From an uncultured delta proteobacterium (GTDB lineage Bacteria; Desulfobacterota; RBG-13-43-22): a DNA stretch of 64,000 bases. This document shows positions 57,303 through 64,000 of this stretch, piece after piece (position 1 is the stretch's first letter; the number at the start of each line of letters is the position of its first letter). The stretch lies in assembly GCA_963843145.1 (NCBI GenBank), contig CAWJJC010000010.1:32001-96000 (forward strand), written 5' to 3'. The position numbers and the translations under genes were made by a program. The notes beneath the pieces were generated by a model. That model was not told where the DNA came from. It made no database searches and saw nothing but the letters and a program-made list of their open reading frames with translations.

Positions 57303-59592
57303 ATGAATACTCGTAGATATCGTGACCCGAATAGTCTGTTTATAATTCTGCCTCTGATCTGGGGGACCATCTTGGGGTTGTGGACCACCCCTGGTTCGGC
57401 TTCGCCAATCGAAAATTCAAGGGATGTTAAATTATCCCGCCCACCACTGCGATTTGAGATTAACGAGGGACAAACCCACCCGCAGGTTCAATTCACCGCG
57501 AGGGATCGCGACGGAATCGCCTTCTTGACTCCCGGCGAAACGGTATTGCAGATCTCCAGGAGAATGGATCGGCCGGATTCCGGCCCCGAATGGGAAAGGC
57601 GGCCGGTCCATCGGTGGGGCCGACCTTTGAATCCTTTTATATTCGTTTAAAAATAGAGGGCGCGAACCCGAACTCCAAGGTAACTGGAATAGAGCGGTTG
57701 CCGGGGGTGACCAATTACCTAATCGGCGATAACCGGCAGAACTGGCGGACCCAGGTTTCCGGCTATGCCAAAGTCAAATACGAGGAGGTTTATCCCGGGA
57801 TCAATCTGGTCTACTACGGAAACTATGAGGGCCGCCTGGAGTATGACTTTATCGTGGCGCCGGGCGCGGATCCCAACCGGATAATTCTTTCCGTCGAAGG
57901 CGCACGGGACGTAGCCATTGACCCGTCGGGTGATCTGGTCATGAGCACCGACCTCGGAACGATACGCCAGCAGGCCCCCAGGGTCTATCAGGAGATAAAC
58001 GGGAGGCGGAAGGAGGTGGACGGGGGATATAAGATAATTGAGGGAGTAGAGTCTGCCGGACGCAAGATTTTGGCCTTCGCGCTGGGGAATTACGACCGAA
58101 ACCGGCCGCTGGTGATAGATCCCGAGATCGTCTATGCCACCTACCTCGGCGGGTCGTCGACCAGCACTGTGGCCAACGAAGGCGCCCGCGGGGTGGCCGT
58201 GGACAGCCAGGGGGAAGCTTACATCGTGGGGGTAACCATATCGGCGGATTTCCCGACCCTGAACCCGGCCCAGGGCACGCTGCGGGGGTTCAGCAACGCC
58301 TTCATCACCAAACTGGACGCCAACGGCCAATGGTCATTCGACCTACCTGGGAGGCAGCGGTTTTGACGAGGGCACCGTCATTAAAGTCGACGCCACCGGC
58401 GCGGCCTATGTGGGGGGGAGCACCTGTTCTACGGAATTTCCCTACAGTCAATGCGCAGCAGGGGACCTACGGGCTCAATTGCGACGCCTTTGTTGCCAAG
58501 TGAGCCAAACGGGTCCCAGCTCGTTTATTCCACCTACCTGGGAGGGGCTGACCGGGAAAGCGTGGCGGACTGGCATTGGATACGGACAATAATCTGTATG
58601 TGGTGGGCAACATCTCCCCGGCAGCGGGGATATCGGCCAACGATTTTCCGACCGTCAACCCCATCCAGGCCACCTATGGCGGAGGTTCCCGGGATGGTTT
58701 CCTGTCGGTTGTCAACTCCGCCGGTTCCAGCCTGCTTTTTTCAACCTACCTGGGAGGGAATGGCGATGATTTTTTTCAGTCGCTTAAACTTGAGGCAGGC
58801 AATGGCGATGTGTATTTGAGTTACTTCAGTGATTCCGACAACTTTTCAAATAGCCTCTCATCTCCGACGCCTTCCCTGGAAGTAACCTTCAAGAAGAAGG
58901 GGAAGATTAAGTTGCGGGATATCGGAGAGAAAGTATTTTTTATTTTTAAGCTGGTGGAAGAAATCGTCAACGACCCATCGGTAGACCCTTTCTTCAAAAT
59001 GGTAATCGAAGAAGCCACTGGTATTTTTATACGCGTGCTCGCTGAAAACACAACCGGCGGCATTACCTTGAACCACGTACAAGCTGATTCAGTTCCAGCC
59101 CTGCAACCCCAGGCCTTGGGTGGTCTAGATGTAAAATTAAGCTCCTTCGACCAGAATTTGAACGTGATCCGACGGTCTTCTTCGGCGGCAGAGGCGAAGA
59201 GACGGTAAGCGCAATGGCGGTCGATCGTCAGGGCGCCGTTTACGTCATCGGTAGCACCATGTCGACCGATCTGCCGACCGTCAATCCCATCCAGGCCGCC
59301 CATTCGGGGGGCGATGCCTCCGACGGTTTCCTGGCCGTCTTCCACCCCCAGACCATGTCGCCCATATTCGCCACCTACCTGGGCGGCACCGGGGTGGAGT
59401 TTCTAACGGCATCACCGTCGATGCCCAGGGCTATATGTACATCGTCGGTGAAACCTGGGCGGCTTCCCGACCCCCACAGCCAACGCCTATCAGAACCAGT
59501 TTCGCGGGCGCACCGACGCCTTCCTCATCAAGATCTCGCCGGTCACCATCCCGCCGATCCTTCGGCTTTTTCTTCCTTTGATCCAGAAATAG
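57303..59592 (+). CDS. Secreted SBBP-repeat beta-propeller protein (multiple frameshifts)
   Basis: FEINEGQ, NYLIG, VYPGI, LEYDF.VAPGADP, LVIDP, repeated YSTYLGG / DFPT; C-terminus LFLPLIQK*. Confidence 0.85.
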
Positions 59593-59746
59593 CGCATTAA
59601 GGAGACAAGCTGCCTTCCTCGATATCGCCTTTGAAGACCCGTGCATAGGAATAAATTGCCACCTACCGAGAGTTGAGACGGTTCCCGATTGGCGTTTGTT
59701 TAATTGACAGGCGGAAAACTGGGTCGGACCCCAATCCCTCATGCAA

Positions 59747-60640
59747 TTACCTCAGAATAAGCGGTAGATAAATATTCTTTCTAATTGGGGCAAAGGCCAA
59801 ATCGTAGCTGATGTTATTCTGGGCTATCAGTGTCGCGATCCCTGTGCTTTTATCCAACACATAAAAACCACCAGTGCTGCCGAAAGCAGCATAGAGAGTA
59901 CCATCGCTAGGATCAATCGCCAACCCGCCAAAACCACCTATTGTTACCCCGGGGTTTCCTATGGAGGTATAGGAGCCAGTGGCAGGACTCACTGTGCCCA
60001 GAGAGTTGCCAATAGCATCAAGCGCATAGAATTTTTGACCATCAAAAGCCAGCCCATTCAGGTCGCGGTTTTCACCTGGGACTGGTCCCAGTACCGTGGC
60101 GATACCTGTGGTGGGGTTGATCGTGAACATCGCAGCGTTACCAGCATTCCCTTGATTTACTCCGAACAATTGCCCTGACGCATCAAATGCTAGTCCGCCT
60201 TCGAAAACGAAGAATCCTAATGGCCCAACTGCAGTGGCAACCCCATTGGTTGTATTGATCGTGTACAACCTTGCGCCCGAACCGATACTAGTGCCGTATA
60301 GAGTCCCGTTACCGTGGAAGGCTAAAGCTCCTATTGCGATCTCAACTGGTCCGTGGGGACCAATCAGGGCGGCGCTTCCGGTGGTTTTGTCGATCATAAA
60401 TAAATTCAGACCATCTGTAGCATACAAACCTCCTGAGACCGGAGTTTGTAACACTGCGGCAGGAGCAGATGTGAAATCTTTATGAAGTCCATCTTCGCTA
60501 TTGGTGGAATAGCCGAGCACACCGGTCAAAGGCGATATAACTCGTGGCACCACTTTCATTGCCGGAGCAGCCGCTGCCCAAGTTTCCAAAAAACCCAACC
60601 CGATGGTCAACACGAATGCGATAATAAGTCGAAATTTCAT
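59747..60640 (-). CDS. Secreted beta-propeller-like protein with C-terminal IYLPLILR tail
   Basis: Signal peptide; repeated LAF..G.LY / TI...TG.AT. Confidence 0.8.
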   Translation of the reverse strand: MKFRLIIAFVLTIGLGFLETWAAAAPAMKVVPRVISPLTGVLGYSTNSEDGLHKDFTSAPAAVLQTPVSGGLYATDGLNLFMIDKTTGSAALIGPHGPVEIAIGALAFHGNGTLYGTSIGSGARLYTINTTNGVATAVGPLGFFVFEGGLAFDASGQLFGVNQGNAGNAAMFTINPTTGIATVLGPVPGENRDLNGLAFDGQKFYALDAIGNSLGTVSPATGSYTSIGNPGVTIGGFGGLAIDPSDGTLYAAFGSTGGFYVLDKSTGIATLIAQNNISYDLAFAPIRKNIYLPLILR

Positions 60641-61112
60641 TCTATTTCTCCTTTAGGTTGTTTGCAAATGTTTTATGCCTAATATGTCATTAAAAAGTAC
60701 TGTGATCTCCATTACAAAGATATGATCTTAAGTTTACCGTAAGCGTTTGATCCCGCCTCACCTCATCAAACCACAACCCCCACCTCTTGGTTGAGAAATG
60801 GGGTTTCCTAAATTCCTCCATTTTCTTGCCCTCTTTTAGGGTTGAGTGGCGTTGCTGGAAAACGGGTTATCTTACTGTTTTGGGTCTTAAATGAATCCCA
60901 TTATATACAATTTTTGAAATAGTAAATAGGAGGTTCTTCATCGGGCAGGTACCCTTAATTTGGGCAGGTCCTTCAACAATTTCCGTTTGAAATCTTCTCA
61001 AAAGGGCAATCCGTCAAAAACAATTCAGGAAGCTATACGTACTAAAATCTGATTTTCTTATTGAAGTTAATGGGTTAGGTGTTGTTTAAAATCTCATAGT
61101 TTTGTTTTTTCG

Positions 61113-62006
61113 TCAAGGATTATTTGGGTGGCCAGCCGTTTGTTGCCTGATCACCTCCATGGCTTTGAAGTAGTCTCTCTGCACCTTAAGGTTTGATATC
61201 CGGCAGTACCGTTGTGTGGTTTTCACATGGCTATGACCCAAGAGATCTTGAATGGTGGAGAGATCGGCATCGGCATTGAGCAGCTGGGTGGCCATGGTAT
61301 GCCGAAGATGATGACAGGACACCTTGAGCTTGGCCTGGCGGGCATAAGTTTCCATGCGCCGCTGAATGCCGCGGATGGAGATGGGCTGCCCCTGGCAAGG
61401 CTTCTTTTCCGCCAGGAAGATCTTTCTGGATCTGGATGGAGGCCTCACCCTCAAATAGGCGGCCAGGGCCTGAAGGGCATCATGGCTCATATAGACGACC
61501 CGATCTTTTCCGCCCTTACCGTCTTCAACCAGGATAGTCCTGCGTTTGACGTCTATGACCCCGATCGTTAGCTGGGCGACTTCTTCCACCCGTAACCCGC
61601 AACGGAGCATGAGCATGAACATGGCCCGGTCACGGACGCCCTTGATGGCCTTGAAGAAGGTCTCCACCTGATCATCTCTCAGGTGCCGGGGAAGGGGCTG
61701 GGACATCTTCTGGAGATGAGTCTTCTTGATGGGATTGGTGATAATCACCCCTTCCTCATCCCGCAGGTAATGGTAGAACTGGCGAATACCGTTCAAGTGG
61801 CAGTTGACCGTCTTGGGCGCCAGCCTCTTCCTCATGAGATGCTCGATGTAGCGTGACACGGTTGCGTGGGTCACGGCCTCCACCGGCACATCCAGCCAGA
61901 GGATAAAGTGTTTAATGAGGTTCAGATAGTTCTTCACGGCATGGGGCGAACAGTTCCGCCGCTTTAAAAATCTCTGCCAGTTCAGGATCGCATCGGTCAT
62001 CGCCAT
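61113..62006 (-). CDS. Tyrosine recombinase/integrase (second)
   Basis: GLRVEE, GKGGK, HHLRH, LGH, TQRY. Confidence 0.93.
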   Translation of the reverse strand: MAMTDAILNWQRFLKRRNCSPHAVKNYLNLIKHFILWLDVPVEAVTHATVSRYIEHLMRKRLAPKTVNCHLNGIRQFYHYLRDEEGVIITNPIKKTHLQKMSQPLPRHLRDDQVETFFKAIKGVRDRAMFMLMLRCGLRVEEVAQLTIGVIDVKRRTILVEDGKGGKDRVVYMSHDALQALAAYLRVRPPSRSRKIFLAEKKPCQGQPISIRGIQRRMETYARQAKLKVSCHHLRHTMATQLLNADADLSTIQDLLGHSHVKTTQRYCRISNLKVQRDYFKAMEVIRQQTAGHPNNP

Positions 62007-63051
62007 TACTGTCCCTCCTCTCTATTTTCGACATGGCTCTAAAATACTCTTCCTCGCGGGTCTTATCGGTCAACTGGGCATAACGCCGGGTCTCCTCGAT
62101 ACTCCGGTGACCCAGCAAAACCTGGAGACACTCCAGACGCATACCGGCGTTGAGAAACTCCGTGGCAAAGGTGTGGCGAAGGGTATGCAGGGAATATCCC
62201 TTGTCCGCCAATCCCGCCTTCGCCAGATATCGTATAAAGATGGTCCGGGCGGTGCTGTAGGACATCGTCTCTGTCCGGGTATAGATCAGGTACTCCTCAC
62301 CGGGATTCCTCTTCTTCAACCACCTCCGCAGAGCCAGGGCCGCATCGTCACTGAGATAGACCACCCTCCCCAGGCGGTTCTTCTCCCCTTCGTAAATCTC
62401 TATCCTCCGCTCCTTGAGATGGACGTCGGCCATCTTGGTATTAAGCAGTTCACCGATCCGCAGACCCGTCCTCAACAAGACCAGGATCATGGCCCGGTCA
62501 CGAATATCTTCAATGACCGAAAGCAGCTTCCGCAGATCGTCAGGATCCATGGCCCGCGGCAGCCGCTCCGGTAATTGCAACCGTATCCTTCTGCTGAATA
62601 GTTCCGCAGAAACGATCCCTTCTTCTAACAGGTAACGGAGAAAGGCTTGCACACTCACCAGCCTGGTCCTGATCGTTGTAATCTTAATCCCCCGGTCCTG
62701 CTCCTGCTCAATGAACGCCTCCACATCCCTTCGGGTAATGGCTTCCAGGGATGCCCTGCCGCTCTCCCGTATCAGGCCAAGAAAAAGAATGATCGCCCCA
62801 AAACGACTGTATAAGGTCCTCGGTCTGCGGTTGCGAAGAGTCAGGTGACGAAGATAGGCTTCCACCTGATCCTTCCCCGGAAGGTCCATCCGGACCAGCC
62901 GTTTCAAAATCTTGCCAAGCGCTTCTAAACAGCCTTCAGGATGTATTTTAAATCGTAATCGCGTTTGATAATAACGGGGAGCGTTATCGGCGGGAATCTT
63001 AAAATCAGAAGATATACTCGTCTGCTGTAGATCACTATGTCCGTTCGTCAT
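61912..63051 (-). CDS. Tyrosine recombinase/integrase (first)
   Basis: GLRIGE, GEKNR, HTLRH, LGH, TRRY. Confidence 0.93.
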   Translation of the reverse strand: MTNGHSDLQQTSISSDFKIPADNAPRYYQTRLRFKIHPEGCLEALGKILKRLVRMDLPGKDQVEAYLRHLTLRNRRPRTLYSRFGAIILFLGLIRESGRASLEAITRRDVEAFIEQEQDRGIKITTIRTRLVSVQAFLRYLLEEGIVSAELFSRRIRLQLPERLPRAMDPDDLRKLLSVIEDIRDRAMILVLLRTGLRIGELLNTKMADVHLKERRIEIYEGEKNRLGRVVYLSDDAALALRRWLKKRNPGEEYLIYTRTETMSYSTARTIFIRYLAKAGLADKGYSLHTLRHTFATEFLNAGMRLECLQVLLGHRSIEETRRYAQLTDKTREEEYFRAMSKIERRDSNGDDRCDPELAEIFKAAELFAPCREELSEPH

Positions 63052-63213
63052 CTCTGCCTCCTTTTCTTAAATCAATAAGAAAATCAGACAGATGATGACT
63101 AATAAACACTTATCTGTCAAACATCAGCTTGGTACGTATAGCAGGAAGAAAGGCACAAAGCGCTCATCCTGGTTACCGGACCAGGCATGCCCATCCGGTA
63201 ACCAGCATGGAAT

Positions 63214-64000
63214 TTATTCAAACAGGTCCGCTTTCATCTCCACCGTCAACCCATCCCCTTCCATCAGCCGCCGGGCCAATCCCTCGATTTTGGGTAGCTC
63301 GTAATGGAAGAAATAGGCAAACGTCTGGATACTTCCCCTGGTAAAAATTATTTTCTTCTTCGGACAATTCCTTTTCCAGGGCCTTCCGGATGACCAGGGC
63401 CTGGACCAGCCACTGCCAGGCCACGGCAATGATGCCGAAGAATTCCAGGTAGAGGGTGGCGTCGGCCAGGAAGTATTCGGGGCCTTTCTCCTGGGAAATT
63501 TGGACCAGGCGGGCCGTGACCTCCTTCAATTTTCCCAGGGCCTCCTGCAGGCGCACGGCGTAAGGGGCCAGTGAGGAGACCTCCCGGGCCTGGGTGATGG
63601 TTTGCTCCACCTCCCGGAGATAAAGCTGGGCCGCCTTCCCGCCCTTCATGACCATTTTTCTTCCCAGCAGATCCAGGCCGTGGATCCCGGTGGTCCCTTC
63701 GTGGATGGGGTGGATGCGGGCGTCGCGGTAGAACAGTTCCAGGGGGAATTCGTCGCAGTAGCCGTACCCGCCCAGGATCTGCAGGCCTTGACTGACCGAA
63801 AGGAGGCCCATTTCCGAGGGATAGGTCTTGGCGACCGGTGTGAGCAGATCCAGCAGCAGTTCGTTCCGCTCTTTATCTTCCCCGGTGAGAACCCGGGCCC
63901 GGTCCGCATAGAGGCTGCATTGCAGCAGCAGGGAAAAAGACCCCTCGACTACGGCTCGCTGGAAAAGGAGCATGCGCTTTACGTCCGCGTGTTCGATGAT
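63214..64000 (-). CDS. Acyl-CoA dehydrogenase (C-terminal part; 3' frameshift)
   Basis: IIEHADVKRMLL, LTPVAKTY, QILGGYGY, IHEGTTGIHGLDL. Confidence 0.92.

Follow-up and report, generated by a model that had tools for sequence, protein, structure and literature searches.

An insertion-sequence-sized candidate mobile element with two tyrosine recombinase genes in an uncultured delta proteobacterium

Structure of the element and of its three genomic copies

We analysed a 64,000-nt window of an uncultured delta proteobacterium (GCA_963843145.1, contig CAWJJC010000010.1, positions 32,001 to 96,000; hereafter C10), in which a minimal mobile element built from just two tyrosine recombinases had been predicted. 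Positions 61026 to 63148 of the window, with the 7-mer at either end counted in, hold one of the three genomic copies of an element of 2109 bp. Its two genes, recS (61113..62006) and recL (61912..63051), lie on the minus strand, the last 95 nt of recL overlapping recS, and encode Xer-like tyrosine recombinases of 297 and 379 aa, respectively. Both products match the Pfam Phage_integrase family (E = 4.8e-40 for RecS and 2.9e-37 for RecL) as well as SAM-like N-terminal domains, and their PF00589 scores of 137.6 and 128.5 bits, against a cut-off of 27.1, place both in the tyrosine recombinase superfamily. The R, K, HxxR and H residues and the nucleophilic Y of each protein align with those of the archaeal XerA (PDB 4a8e), the best solved relative of both, across the whole catalytic domain. 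RecL has ~60 extra N-terminal and ~50 extra C-terminal residues, and N-terminal residues are conserved in the alignment. Because the non-coding ends comprise only 80 and 90 nt, and because all remaining open reading frames (ORFs) of at least 50 aa overlie the recombinase genes in another frame or on the other strand, the element has neither cargo nor space for a third gene. The Pfam matches, the XerA alignment and the ORF survey thus agree with the original prediction of two overlapping recombinase genes with full catalytic sets and no cargo.

At the left end lies the 7-mer CAGGAAG (61026..61032, plus strand), on the side of the target arm described below, and the same 7-mer recurs at the right end (63142..63148, plus strand). 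Between them lie the terminal inverted repeats, CTATACGTAC on the RecS side (61033..61042) and its inverted partner GTACGTATAG on the RecL side (63132..63141). An inner repeat of 17 bp, TCTGATTTTCTTATTGA (61048..61064), has a perfect inverted match at 63072..63088; as had been claimed, the outer and inner repeats lie 5 nt apart at the left end and 43 nt apart at the right end. The second inner copy is located upstream of the recL ribosome-binding site and downstream of a promoter-like site reading into recL (TTGACA-17-CATCAT, 63092..63120, minus strand; 10 of 12 consensus matches).

The outer and direct repeats required revision. The outer repeat had first been read as a perfect inverted repeat of 11 bp (61032-61042 and 63132-63142), and the direct repeat as AGGAA (61027-61031 and 63143-63147). 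AGGAA is indeed present on both sides, but it lies inside the longer direct repeat CAGGAAG, which overlaps each 11-bp arm by one base. Relatives that carry other 7-mers show CTATACG as the first bases of the inverted repeat, with a non-complementary base just outside. Therefore, the true anatomy is a 10-bp inverted repeat with a 7-bp flanking repeat, and the eleventh pair is only apparent, arising because CAGGAAG starts with C and ends with G. By our own arithmetic, a perfect 17-bp inverted repeat is expected ~2e-4 times by chance in 2.6 kb, and an 11-bp repeat alone ~0.8 times. The outer repeat coincides with the exact limit of homology among the three genomic copies and is conserved in 28 of 30 representative loci of the family to which the element belongs.

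Core sites of tyrosine recombinases consist of inverted binding arms around an asymmetric overlap of 6-8 bp. When joined head to tail, the two ends of the element would read GTACGTATAG-CAGGAAG-CTATACGTAC (10-7-10), a predicted junction that matches this classic layout. Because the two CAGGAAG copies are direct repeats, recombination between them would result in excision rather than inversion.

The other two copies are located on contigs C28 and C13, and identities among the three copies range from 95 to 99.7%. A 2121-nt query taken from the window is 95% identical to the C28 copy and also 95% identical to the C13 copy, in which a contig end cuts the match after query base 16. According to the flank alignments, homology starts exactly between TT and CAGGAAG-CTATACGTAC on the left and stops exactly between GTACGTATAG-CAGGAAG and AA on the right. 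Outside these borders, the right flanks of the three copies are unrelated, and the left flanks are only ~65% alike, compared with 95% inside the element. A longer element that includes the left flank was considered and rejected, because of this drop in similarity and because the flank belongs to a 29-member repeat family of its own.

The C28 and C13 copies, which occupy two sites, are identical at 2099 of 2106 positions (99.67%; seven differences), suggesting that at least one transposition is recent. The C10 copy is identical to the C28 copy at 2021 of 2121 positions and differs by ~4.7% from each of the other copies, with no indels. All six ORFs of the three copies are intact, and 39 of the 64 differences between C10 and C28 in the non-overlapping part of recL fall at third codon positions; thus, recL and recS are under selection. 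In common with insertion sequences in general, the element is smaller than 2.5 kb, contains mobility genes only, has terminal inverted repeats and is present in multiple copies with exact common borders.

Conservation of the gene pair, the ends and the 7-mer among relatives

A search with RecL yielded hundreds of proteins at 70-95% identity, many of which are encoded on contigs of just 2.0-2.3 kb. Scanning of one genome per species identified 77 related loci. The hosts of these loci are uncultured 'delta proteobacteria', Syntrophales, Smithellaceae, Smithella, Desulfobulbus, Geobacteraceae and the isolate Desulfoprunum benzoelyticum DSM 28570, apart from a small number of short contigs that were binned to other taxa. 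In 71 of the 77 loci, recL is followed by recS and by no third recombinase, down to a RecL identity of 42%, as expected from the prediction of a two-gene element. The remaining six (two cut by contig ends and four with a truncated RecL) contain fewer genes, never more, and an extra weak recombinase match was detected nearby in only two of the 77 loci, outside the element. The identities of RecL and RecS to the query co-vary (Spearman 0.965, n = 69 loci, which are related and not independent). Eight other genomes contain more than one copy each, with within-genome identities of 97-100% over 2.13-2.32 kb and with ends of this kind. Among 401 genomes evenly sampled across the phylum, 16 genomes from 12 of 254 genera contain one to four matches each, a patchy phyletic distribution that looks like that of a mobile element.

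The homologous pairs also bear the predicted ends. Both ends were found in the 28 representative loci mentioned above, with the terminal repeat in the form CTATACGTA(A/C)C, and both ends together with both 7-mers were identified in 57 loci, where the length of the element is 2034-2281 bp. From the outside in, the RecL-side end consists of the 7-mer, CTATACGTA(A/C)C, AAAATGATGATTGACAG, ~17 nt, CAT(C/T)AT, TCTGTTTTTCTTATTGA, GGAGG and ATG, and the RecS-side end consists of the 7-mer, CTATACGTA(A/C)C, four or five bases and TCTGTTTTTCTTATTGA. The position of the RecS-side inner repeat and its TCTGTTTTTCTTATTGA-like motif are thus kept family-wide. Because both layouts are conserved across the representative loci, the asymmetric spacing is a trait of the family. 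The extra 43 nt on the RecL side contain the promoter-like site, and the inner repeat on this side overlies the expected transcription start. Since the promoter scan as a whole was not above shuffles, the argument for a promoter rests on conservation: TTGAC and CAT(C/T)AT are kept at the same place in most of the 28 aligned ends. The inner 17-bp repeats are probably additional recombinase-binding sites, and the RecL-side copy may double as an operator for autoregulation. As originally suggested, each of the two enzymes may bind one repeat type.

As many as 14 different RecS-side 7-mers occur among the 57 loci (CTTCCTG in 20, GTAGGTG in 11, AGACTGT in 7, CACCTAC and CTTGCCA in 4 each, plus others), and the 7-mer of a subfamily matches the 7-mer of its target. 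The flanking 7-mers were found to be identical in 43 of the 57 loci by the end-finder, and alignment added a 44th locus (L014, with CTTCCTG on both sides). They differ in the remaining 13 loci, 11 of which are informative; in all 11, the canonical 7-mer of the subfamily is located at the RecS end and a variable one at the RecL end. AGACTGT, for example, is constant at the RecS end of seven insertions in three genomes, versus five different left 7-mers. In the genome analysed here the flanking 7-mers are identical, and the one-sided constancy is visible in the relatives only. Because duplicated target bases could not produce this one-sided placement of the canonical 7-mer at the RecS end, the 7-mer is a crossover sequence and not a target duplication; of the two roles originally proposed for AGGAA, crossover sequence or duplicated target, the former is thus supported and the latter is not. 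This pattern is compatible with conservative recombination, the 7-mer moving together with one end, as is reported for the SE elements and for Tn554, which inserts site-specifically without target duplication and carries a short core to one side. It also hints at a one-sided strand exchange that would be resolved by replication. In addition, elements with GTAGGTG face one way with respect to a given kind of target arm and elements with the complement CACCTAC face the other way, a flip that an asymmetric overlap between symmetric arms would predict.

A distant subfamily (loci L079-L083, all from one Desulfobulbus metagenome-assembled genome, L084 and L077) shows 42-45% RecL identity, and its copies are 99.7-99.9% identical. 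The targets of this subfamily resemble palindromic sites (AGTCAACATT ... AATCATGACT), and its constant RecS-end 7-mer is AGACTGT, paired with varying 7-mers at the RecL end.

Structure prediction and wider searches yielded little further information on the two proteins. An AlphaFold2 model of RecL based on a 17-row alignment had a mean pLDDT of 57.8, with residues 1-36 unstructured, and is uninformative on an arm-binding domain. The predicted RecL-RecS complex scored 0.28 against a mark of 0.32, which is evidence neither way; joint action of the two enzymes in a mixed complex, such as a tetramer, is plausible, and both may be required. The ESM Atlas search with RecL returned solely unnamed tyrosine-recombinase clusters. 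When a plasmid collection was searched with RecS, the best 5000 records were all below 60% identity, those among the matches listed being at 30-33%, and one match that was examined proved to be an integrase beside an IS91 transposase, not a RIT element.

The target unit, empty sites and a candidate circle junction

The sequence to the left of the element belongs to a family of ~330-bp repeats, referred to here as units. A profile built from nine sites gave 29 matches in the genome with nhmmer, all ending at (T/A)(T/A)CAGGAAG, and the 11-mer TTCAGGAAGAA occurs 19 times in the genome compared with ~2.5 expected by our own arithmetic. The member in the window (60778..61025, minus strand), which forms the target arm of the C10 copy, comprises a hairpin (60778-60803) in which copies differ by compensatory changes, a leader, a sigma-70-like promoter of the TATAAT type (-10 at 60900-60905), a near-palindromic box A (60975-60996) and box B (CAAAAACAAnnTT, 61015-61025), which adjoins the core. 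The promoter of the unit faces away from the core and is co-oriented with recL and recS. The genes that follow units are unrelated to one another and encode signalling and secreted proteins, among others: Lcl_C, beta-helix, PAS/HD and histidine-kinase proteins, cyclases, a STAND NTPase and a cation-efflux protein. An Rfam search over 60500-63400 with E values up to 1 gave no match, so the unit does not belong to a known RNA family.

The element is absent from 26 of the 29 units, and the unoccupied units extend beyond the core with a second conserved arm. At the unoccupied paralogous site C28:494397-494630, both arm families surround a single CAGGAAG, and the right arm matches the right flank of the C28 copy over 66 nt at 88% identity. 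Of 48 loci in other genomes, 10 have the arm family beside the RecS-side flank and none has it beside the RecL-side flank. Units with the core GTAGGTG are also present in this genome, and a related arm was recognised by eye in the GTAGGTG subfamily. Subfamilies with other 7-mers (CAAATAC, CTTGCCA, ATCGTAA and others) have no recognisable arm and share mainly TT before and AA after the 7-mer.

At least four units are arranged head to tail within 12 kb on contig C2 (island C2:115-130 kb), and single tyrosine-recombinase genes, ~26% identical to RecS, adjoin four units with the same geometry. Units are found at C2:115667-129500, C28:347463-349758, C28:493273-494630, C21:20457-22816, C20:535140-540191 and other locations. 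Furthermore, a 3.2-kb segment bounded by GTAGGTG cores is present twice (C2:126204-129436 and C20:538917-542152; 96.8% identical) and encodes one tyrosine recombinase and a beta-helix/PMP-repeat protein in addition to carrying a complete CAGGAAG unit. A third, partial copy (C2:117730-118805, 91%) stops exactly at CTTCCTG and is followed by a different unit. Judged from its borders and content, this segment looks like a second kind of element that uses the same site family, and the unit itself looks like a recombination site used by several elements. The unit may serve as a cassette site or as an attP, or it may be a promoter that has become a target for elements.

In a genome of the same genus (G002), an acyl-CoA-dehydrogenase flank 93% identical to the right flank of the C10 copy is preceded by ...CAAAAACAACATTTCTGGAAG and no element; this empty site consists of a short arm and the variant core CTGGAAG. 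Single-core empty sites, which the original prediction had led us to expect, thus exist at the paralogous C28 site and, at an orthologous flank, in G002. The single copy of the element in G002 is 95.4% identical to that in the window over 2216 nt, 91 nt of which belong to the left arm. This copy and its C10-type arm are located at G002 C33:50000-56500, next to a gene cassette with an 881-nt deletion, and their surroundings are syntenic with C12:150-165 kb of the genome analysed here. Another dispersed repeat of ~320 bp, unrelated to the unit, is present at G002 L136:1122-1440 and, according to BLAST matches, at ~20 places in the genome analysed here (for example, C27:103023-103333 and C10:173615-173927) with 77-93% identity.

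We also scanned metagenome contigs for half-repeats around any 7-mer and obtained 24 loci, a handful of which, by our own arithmetic, may be due to chance and several of which are low-complexity. On one contig of a relative (L107; 2246 nt, 1554 nt examined), recS and recL are followed by a RecL-end, ACAGGAA and a RecS-end, joined head to tail, and the 29 nt past the junction match the RecS-side end of the family. The evidence for transposition of the element is indirect and consists of this junction contig and the 99.67% identical copies at two sites. At three further metagenome loci, an element end lies beside a solitary repeat, and six loci contain solitary palindromic sites with no recombinase gene within up to 1.5 kb on each side (less at contig ends). 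Solitary sites of the form TACGTATAG-N7-CTATACGTA were seen at L090/L095, L101, L102, L109 and L110, some with element-like sequence on both sides. The solitary sites could be miniature derivatives, footprints or independent recombination sites. The contigs of one RNA library cover 27 of 30 bins, which is no demonstration of transcription.

Elsewhere in the window, overlapping plus-strand ORFs in all three frames at 57590-59600 share a common repeat motif (YSTYLGG...) and have the appearance of a single large repeat-protein gene interrupted by frameshifts or errors of assembly.

Mode of movement, alternatives and relation to known systems

We consider it likely, with a probability of roughly 80%, that the locus represents an autonomous, insertion-sequence-sized, strongly site-specific transposable element whose sole genes are recL and recS. 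Three copies with exact borders, the conserved pair and ends, and the single-core sites all favour the originally predicted two-recombinase, insertion-sequence-like mobile element. In such an element, the ends would be the 10-bp inverted repeats, each beside one CAGGAAG, and recombination between the direct 7-mers would release a 2116-bp circle with the symmetric 10-7-10 junction given above; for this organism, we infer the circular form from the sequence of the ends. The circle would then re-integrate by conservative recombination at a target with the same 7-mer (TT-CAGGAAG-AA), which in this genome and its relatives would be the core of a conserved, multi-copy, attachment-like unit. The asymmetric 7-mer would dictate both the choice of target and the orientation of insertion. 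The conserved RecL-side TTGACA-17-CATCAT promoter would drive recL and recS, and the inner repeats, one of which overlies the region of transcription start, would probably provide the extra binding sites for the recombinases.

Several observations weigh against this interpretation. Both recombinases need not be required for movement. The half-sites of the target (AAACAAnnTT and AAG) are unlike the inverted repeat of the element. The empty site of G002 reads CTGGAAG, not CAGGAAG, and lacks the full unit, and the arrangement of the G002 copy suggests that cores also undergo exchange or that blocks exceeding the element in size also move. Given its divergence of 4.7% and a contamination rating of 6.9% for the assembly, the C10 copy may not stem from a recent jump within one cell line. 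The L107 junction could represent a tandem copy instead of a circle. Finally, no circle or excision junction for this genome was detected in four public runs (Logan contigs; pieces listed 100-457 nt), no run containing more than 27% of the sampled words; among the contigs listed from these runs, none is joined across the element or back on itself.

Four alternative explanations were compared with the proposal of an autonomous element. The pair may be the recombinase module of a larger unit system, such as an integron- or attP-like platform with promoter-bearing cassettes, that docks at cores and shuffles modules of unit plus cargo. Such a system would account for the units lying head to tail in islands (C2:115-130 kb) and before unrelated genes, for their sharp ending at the core, for the single recombinase genes adjoining four units with the same geometry, and for G002 sharing the element, the 91-nt arm and a fragment of a neighbouring gene in a different genomic context. 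We nevertheless regard it as unlikely, because only the 2.1-kb element is conserved among the three copies while the flanking arms are ~65% alike, because copies in other genomes are 99-100% identical over the element alone, because 26 of the 29 units lack the pair, and because no arm can be recognised at the sites of subfamilies with CAAATAC, CTTGCCA, ATCGTAA and other 7-mers. A fixed invertible or resolvable switch of the FimB/FimE-fimS type, or an immobile relic integrase pair, would resemble the locus superficially in having adjacent tyrosine recombinases between inverted repeats; this is very improbable, since the asymmetric 7-mers are in direct orientation and would lead to excision instead of inversion, the three copies have unrelated right flanks, copies of relatives are 99-100% identical at many sites, and the phyletic distribution is patchy.

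The identical short direct repeats flanking every copy in this genome are also what a staggered-cut target-site duplication, as in classical insertion sequences, would leave as AGGAA or CAGGAAG. There is very little to be said for this origin when one 7-mer is common to all insertions of a subfamily, when the 7-mers of 13 insertions in relatives differ with the constant one at the RecS end in 11 of 11 informative cases, and when the enzymes are conservative recombinases. The remaining alternative, which we also judge to be improbable, is a reduced form of a known family, either a RIT element that has lost one gene or a Tn554-type element without TnpC and cargo. RIT elements resemble the locus in their overlapping tyrosine-recombinase genes, their terminal inverted repeats and their lack of cargo (PMC3414803, PMC10214605), and Tn554 resembles it in its two recombinases, its site specificity and the short core that it carries over on one side. 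However, sporadic decay would not produce a two-gene form that is stable in 71 of 77 loci and persists, together with conserved ends, down to 42% RecL identity. The non-coding ends of 80 and 90 nt also offer no space for a third gene. The Tn554-related pairs of Actinobacteria include a protein of 611-828 aa. The proteins of 297 and 379 aa differ in size from TnpA and TnpB, which are 361 and 630 aa long.

If the proposal of an autonomous two-recombinase element is correct, the element would be the smallest and most tractable system in which to ask why a single tyrosine recombinase is not enough for some mobile elements. Natural subfamilies have re-coded 7-bp spacers, which their targets match and with which the orientation flips; this series suggests a compact site-specific integration system that could be retargeted via its spacer. 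Moreover, the element marks a conserved multi-copy site, and the unit appears to organise variable gene islands in anaerobic syntrophs. A more ambitious view, for which we would put the chances slightly below even, is that the element founds a new insertion-sequence family, the first with a conserved Xer-like pair as its 'transposase'. In that family, a swappable 7-bp spacer would have been re-coded at least 14 times, exchange would be one-sided with a replication-resolved or strand-biased Holliday junction, and the landing pad would be an undescribed, promoter-bearing, multi-copy attachment site, maybe an integron-like cassette site, in Syntrophales and relatives.

To our knowledge, standard accounts include no insertion-sequence family that moves by tyrosine recombination. 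We found no published two-recombinase insertion element in the full-text literature, a search that covered neither ISfinder nor subscription journals. In a 2023 review, five groups of prokaryotic transposons with tyrosine recombinases are distinguished (ICE/IME, SE, GInt, RIT and Tn554), none of which is of the present kind. The odds that the family is undescribed are roughly even; the element appears to be a transposable element driven by tyrosine recombinases, and its two-enzyme form does not seem to have been described.

With the XerC/XerD-dif system and IMEX, the element shares 'simple' Xer-like recombinases and a predicted junction that is dif- or lox-like, with inverted arms and a short asymmetric spacer. 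It differs in that the genes lie inside a mobile unit, which is present in three copies per genome, whereas XerC and XerD form one unlinked pair per chromosome acting at dif, and in that the NCBIfam scores for XerC and XerD (204.6 and 176.5 bits for RecS; 143.4 and 130.1 bits for RecL) are far under the cut-offs of 335 and 330 for chromosome-dimer resolvases. The host's own XerD is encoded at C27:481556 (377 bits, above the cut-off) and an XerC-like protein at C2:63340 (317 bits), both unlinked to the element. IS1111-attC insertion sequences and group IIC-attC introns are small selfish elements that home in a single orientation to the core of a resident multi-copy site; they use a DEDD transposase or a reverse transcriptase, and their target is the attC of integrons.

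RIT elements are likewise insertion-sequence-sized and consist only of overlapping tyrosine-recombinase genes between terminal inverted repeats, with no cargo, and their mobility has been deduced from distribution and not from bench work (PMC3414803, PMC10214605). They have three genes, ritA, ritB and ritC, with two core-binding domains in RitA (PMC8138268), whereas the family described here stably has two. Further differences are that RIT inverted repeats are at least 34 bp long, compared with 10-11 bp (outer) and 17 bp (inner) here, and that RIT elements are found mainly in Alpha- and Betaproteobacteria instead of Syntrophales, Desulfobulbales and similar taxa. This separation from RIT is based on gene content and on the RIT descriptions. 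The Rit proteins form the subgroups RitA, RitB and RitC, and an extra C-terminal helix characterises RitC.

Tn554 also uses two tyrosine recombinases, inserts site-specifically with no true target duplication and carries a 6-7-bp core on one side. It needs TnpC, has a large TnpB and carries resistance cargo, in contrast to the 2.1-kb element, in which no third ORF is present. Tn554 is not known to have perfect terminal inverted repeats; its termini form imperfect ones. SE and GInt elements are transposon-like islands that are moved by several proteins of the tyrosine-recombinase fold, are target-specific, leave a one-sided 'footprint' and show strand-biased exchange; unlike the present element, they have four core genes, including those for a catalytically dead fold protein and an auxiliary protein, span 15-35 kb with cargo and occur in Gamma- and Betaproteobacteria.

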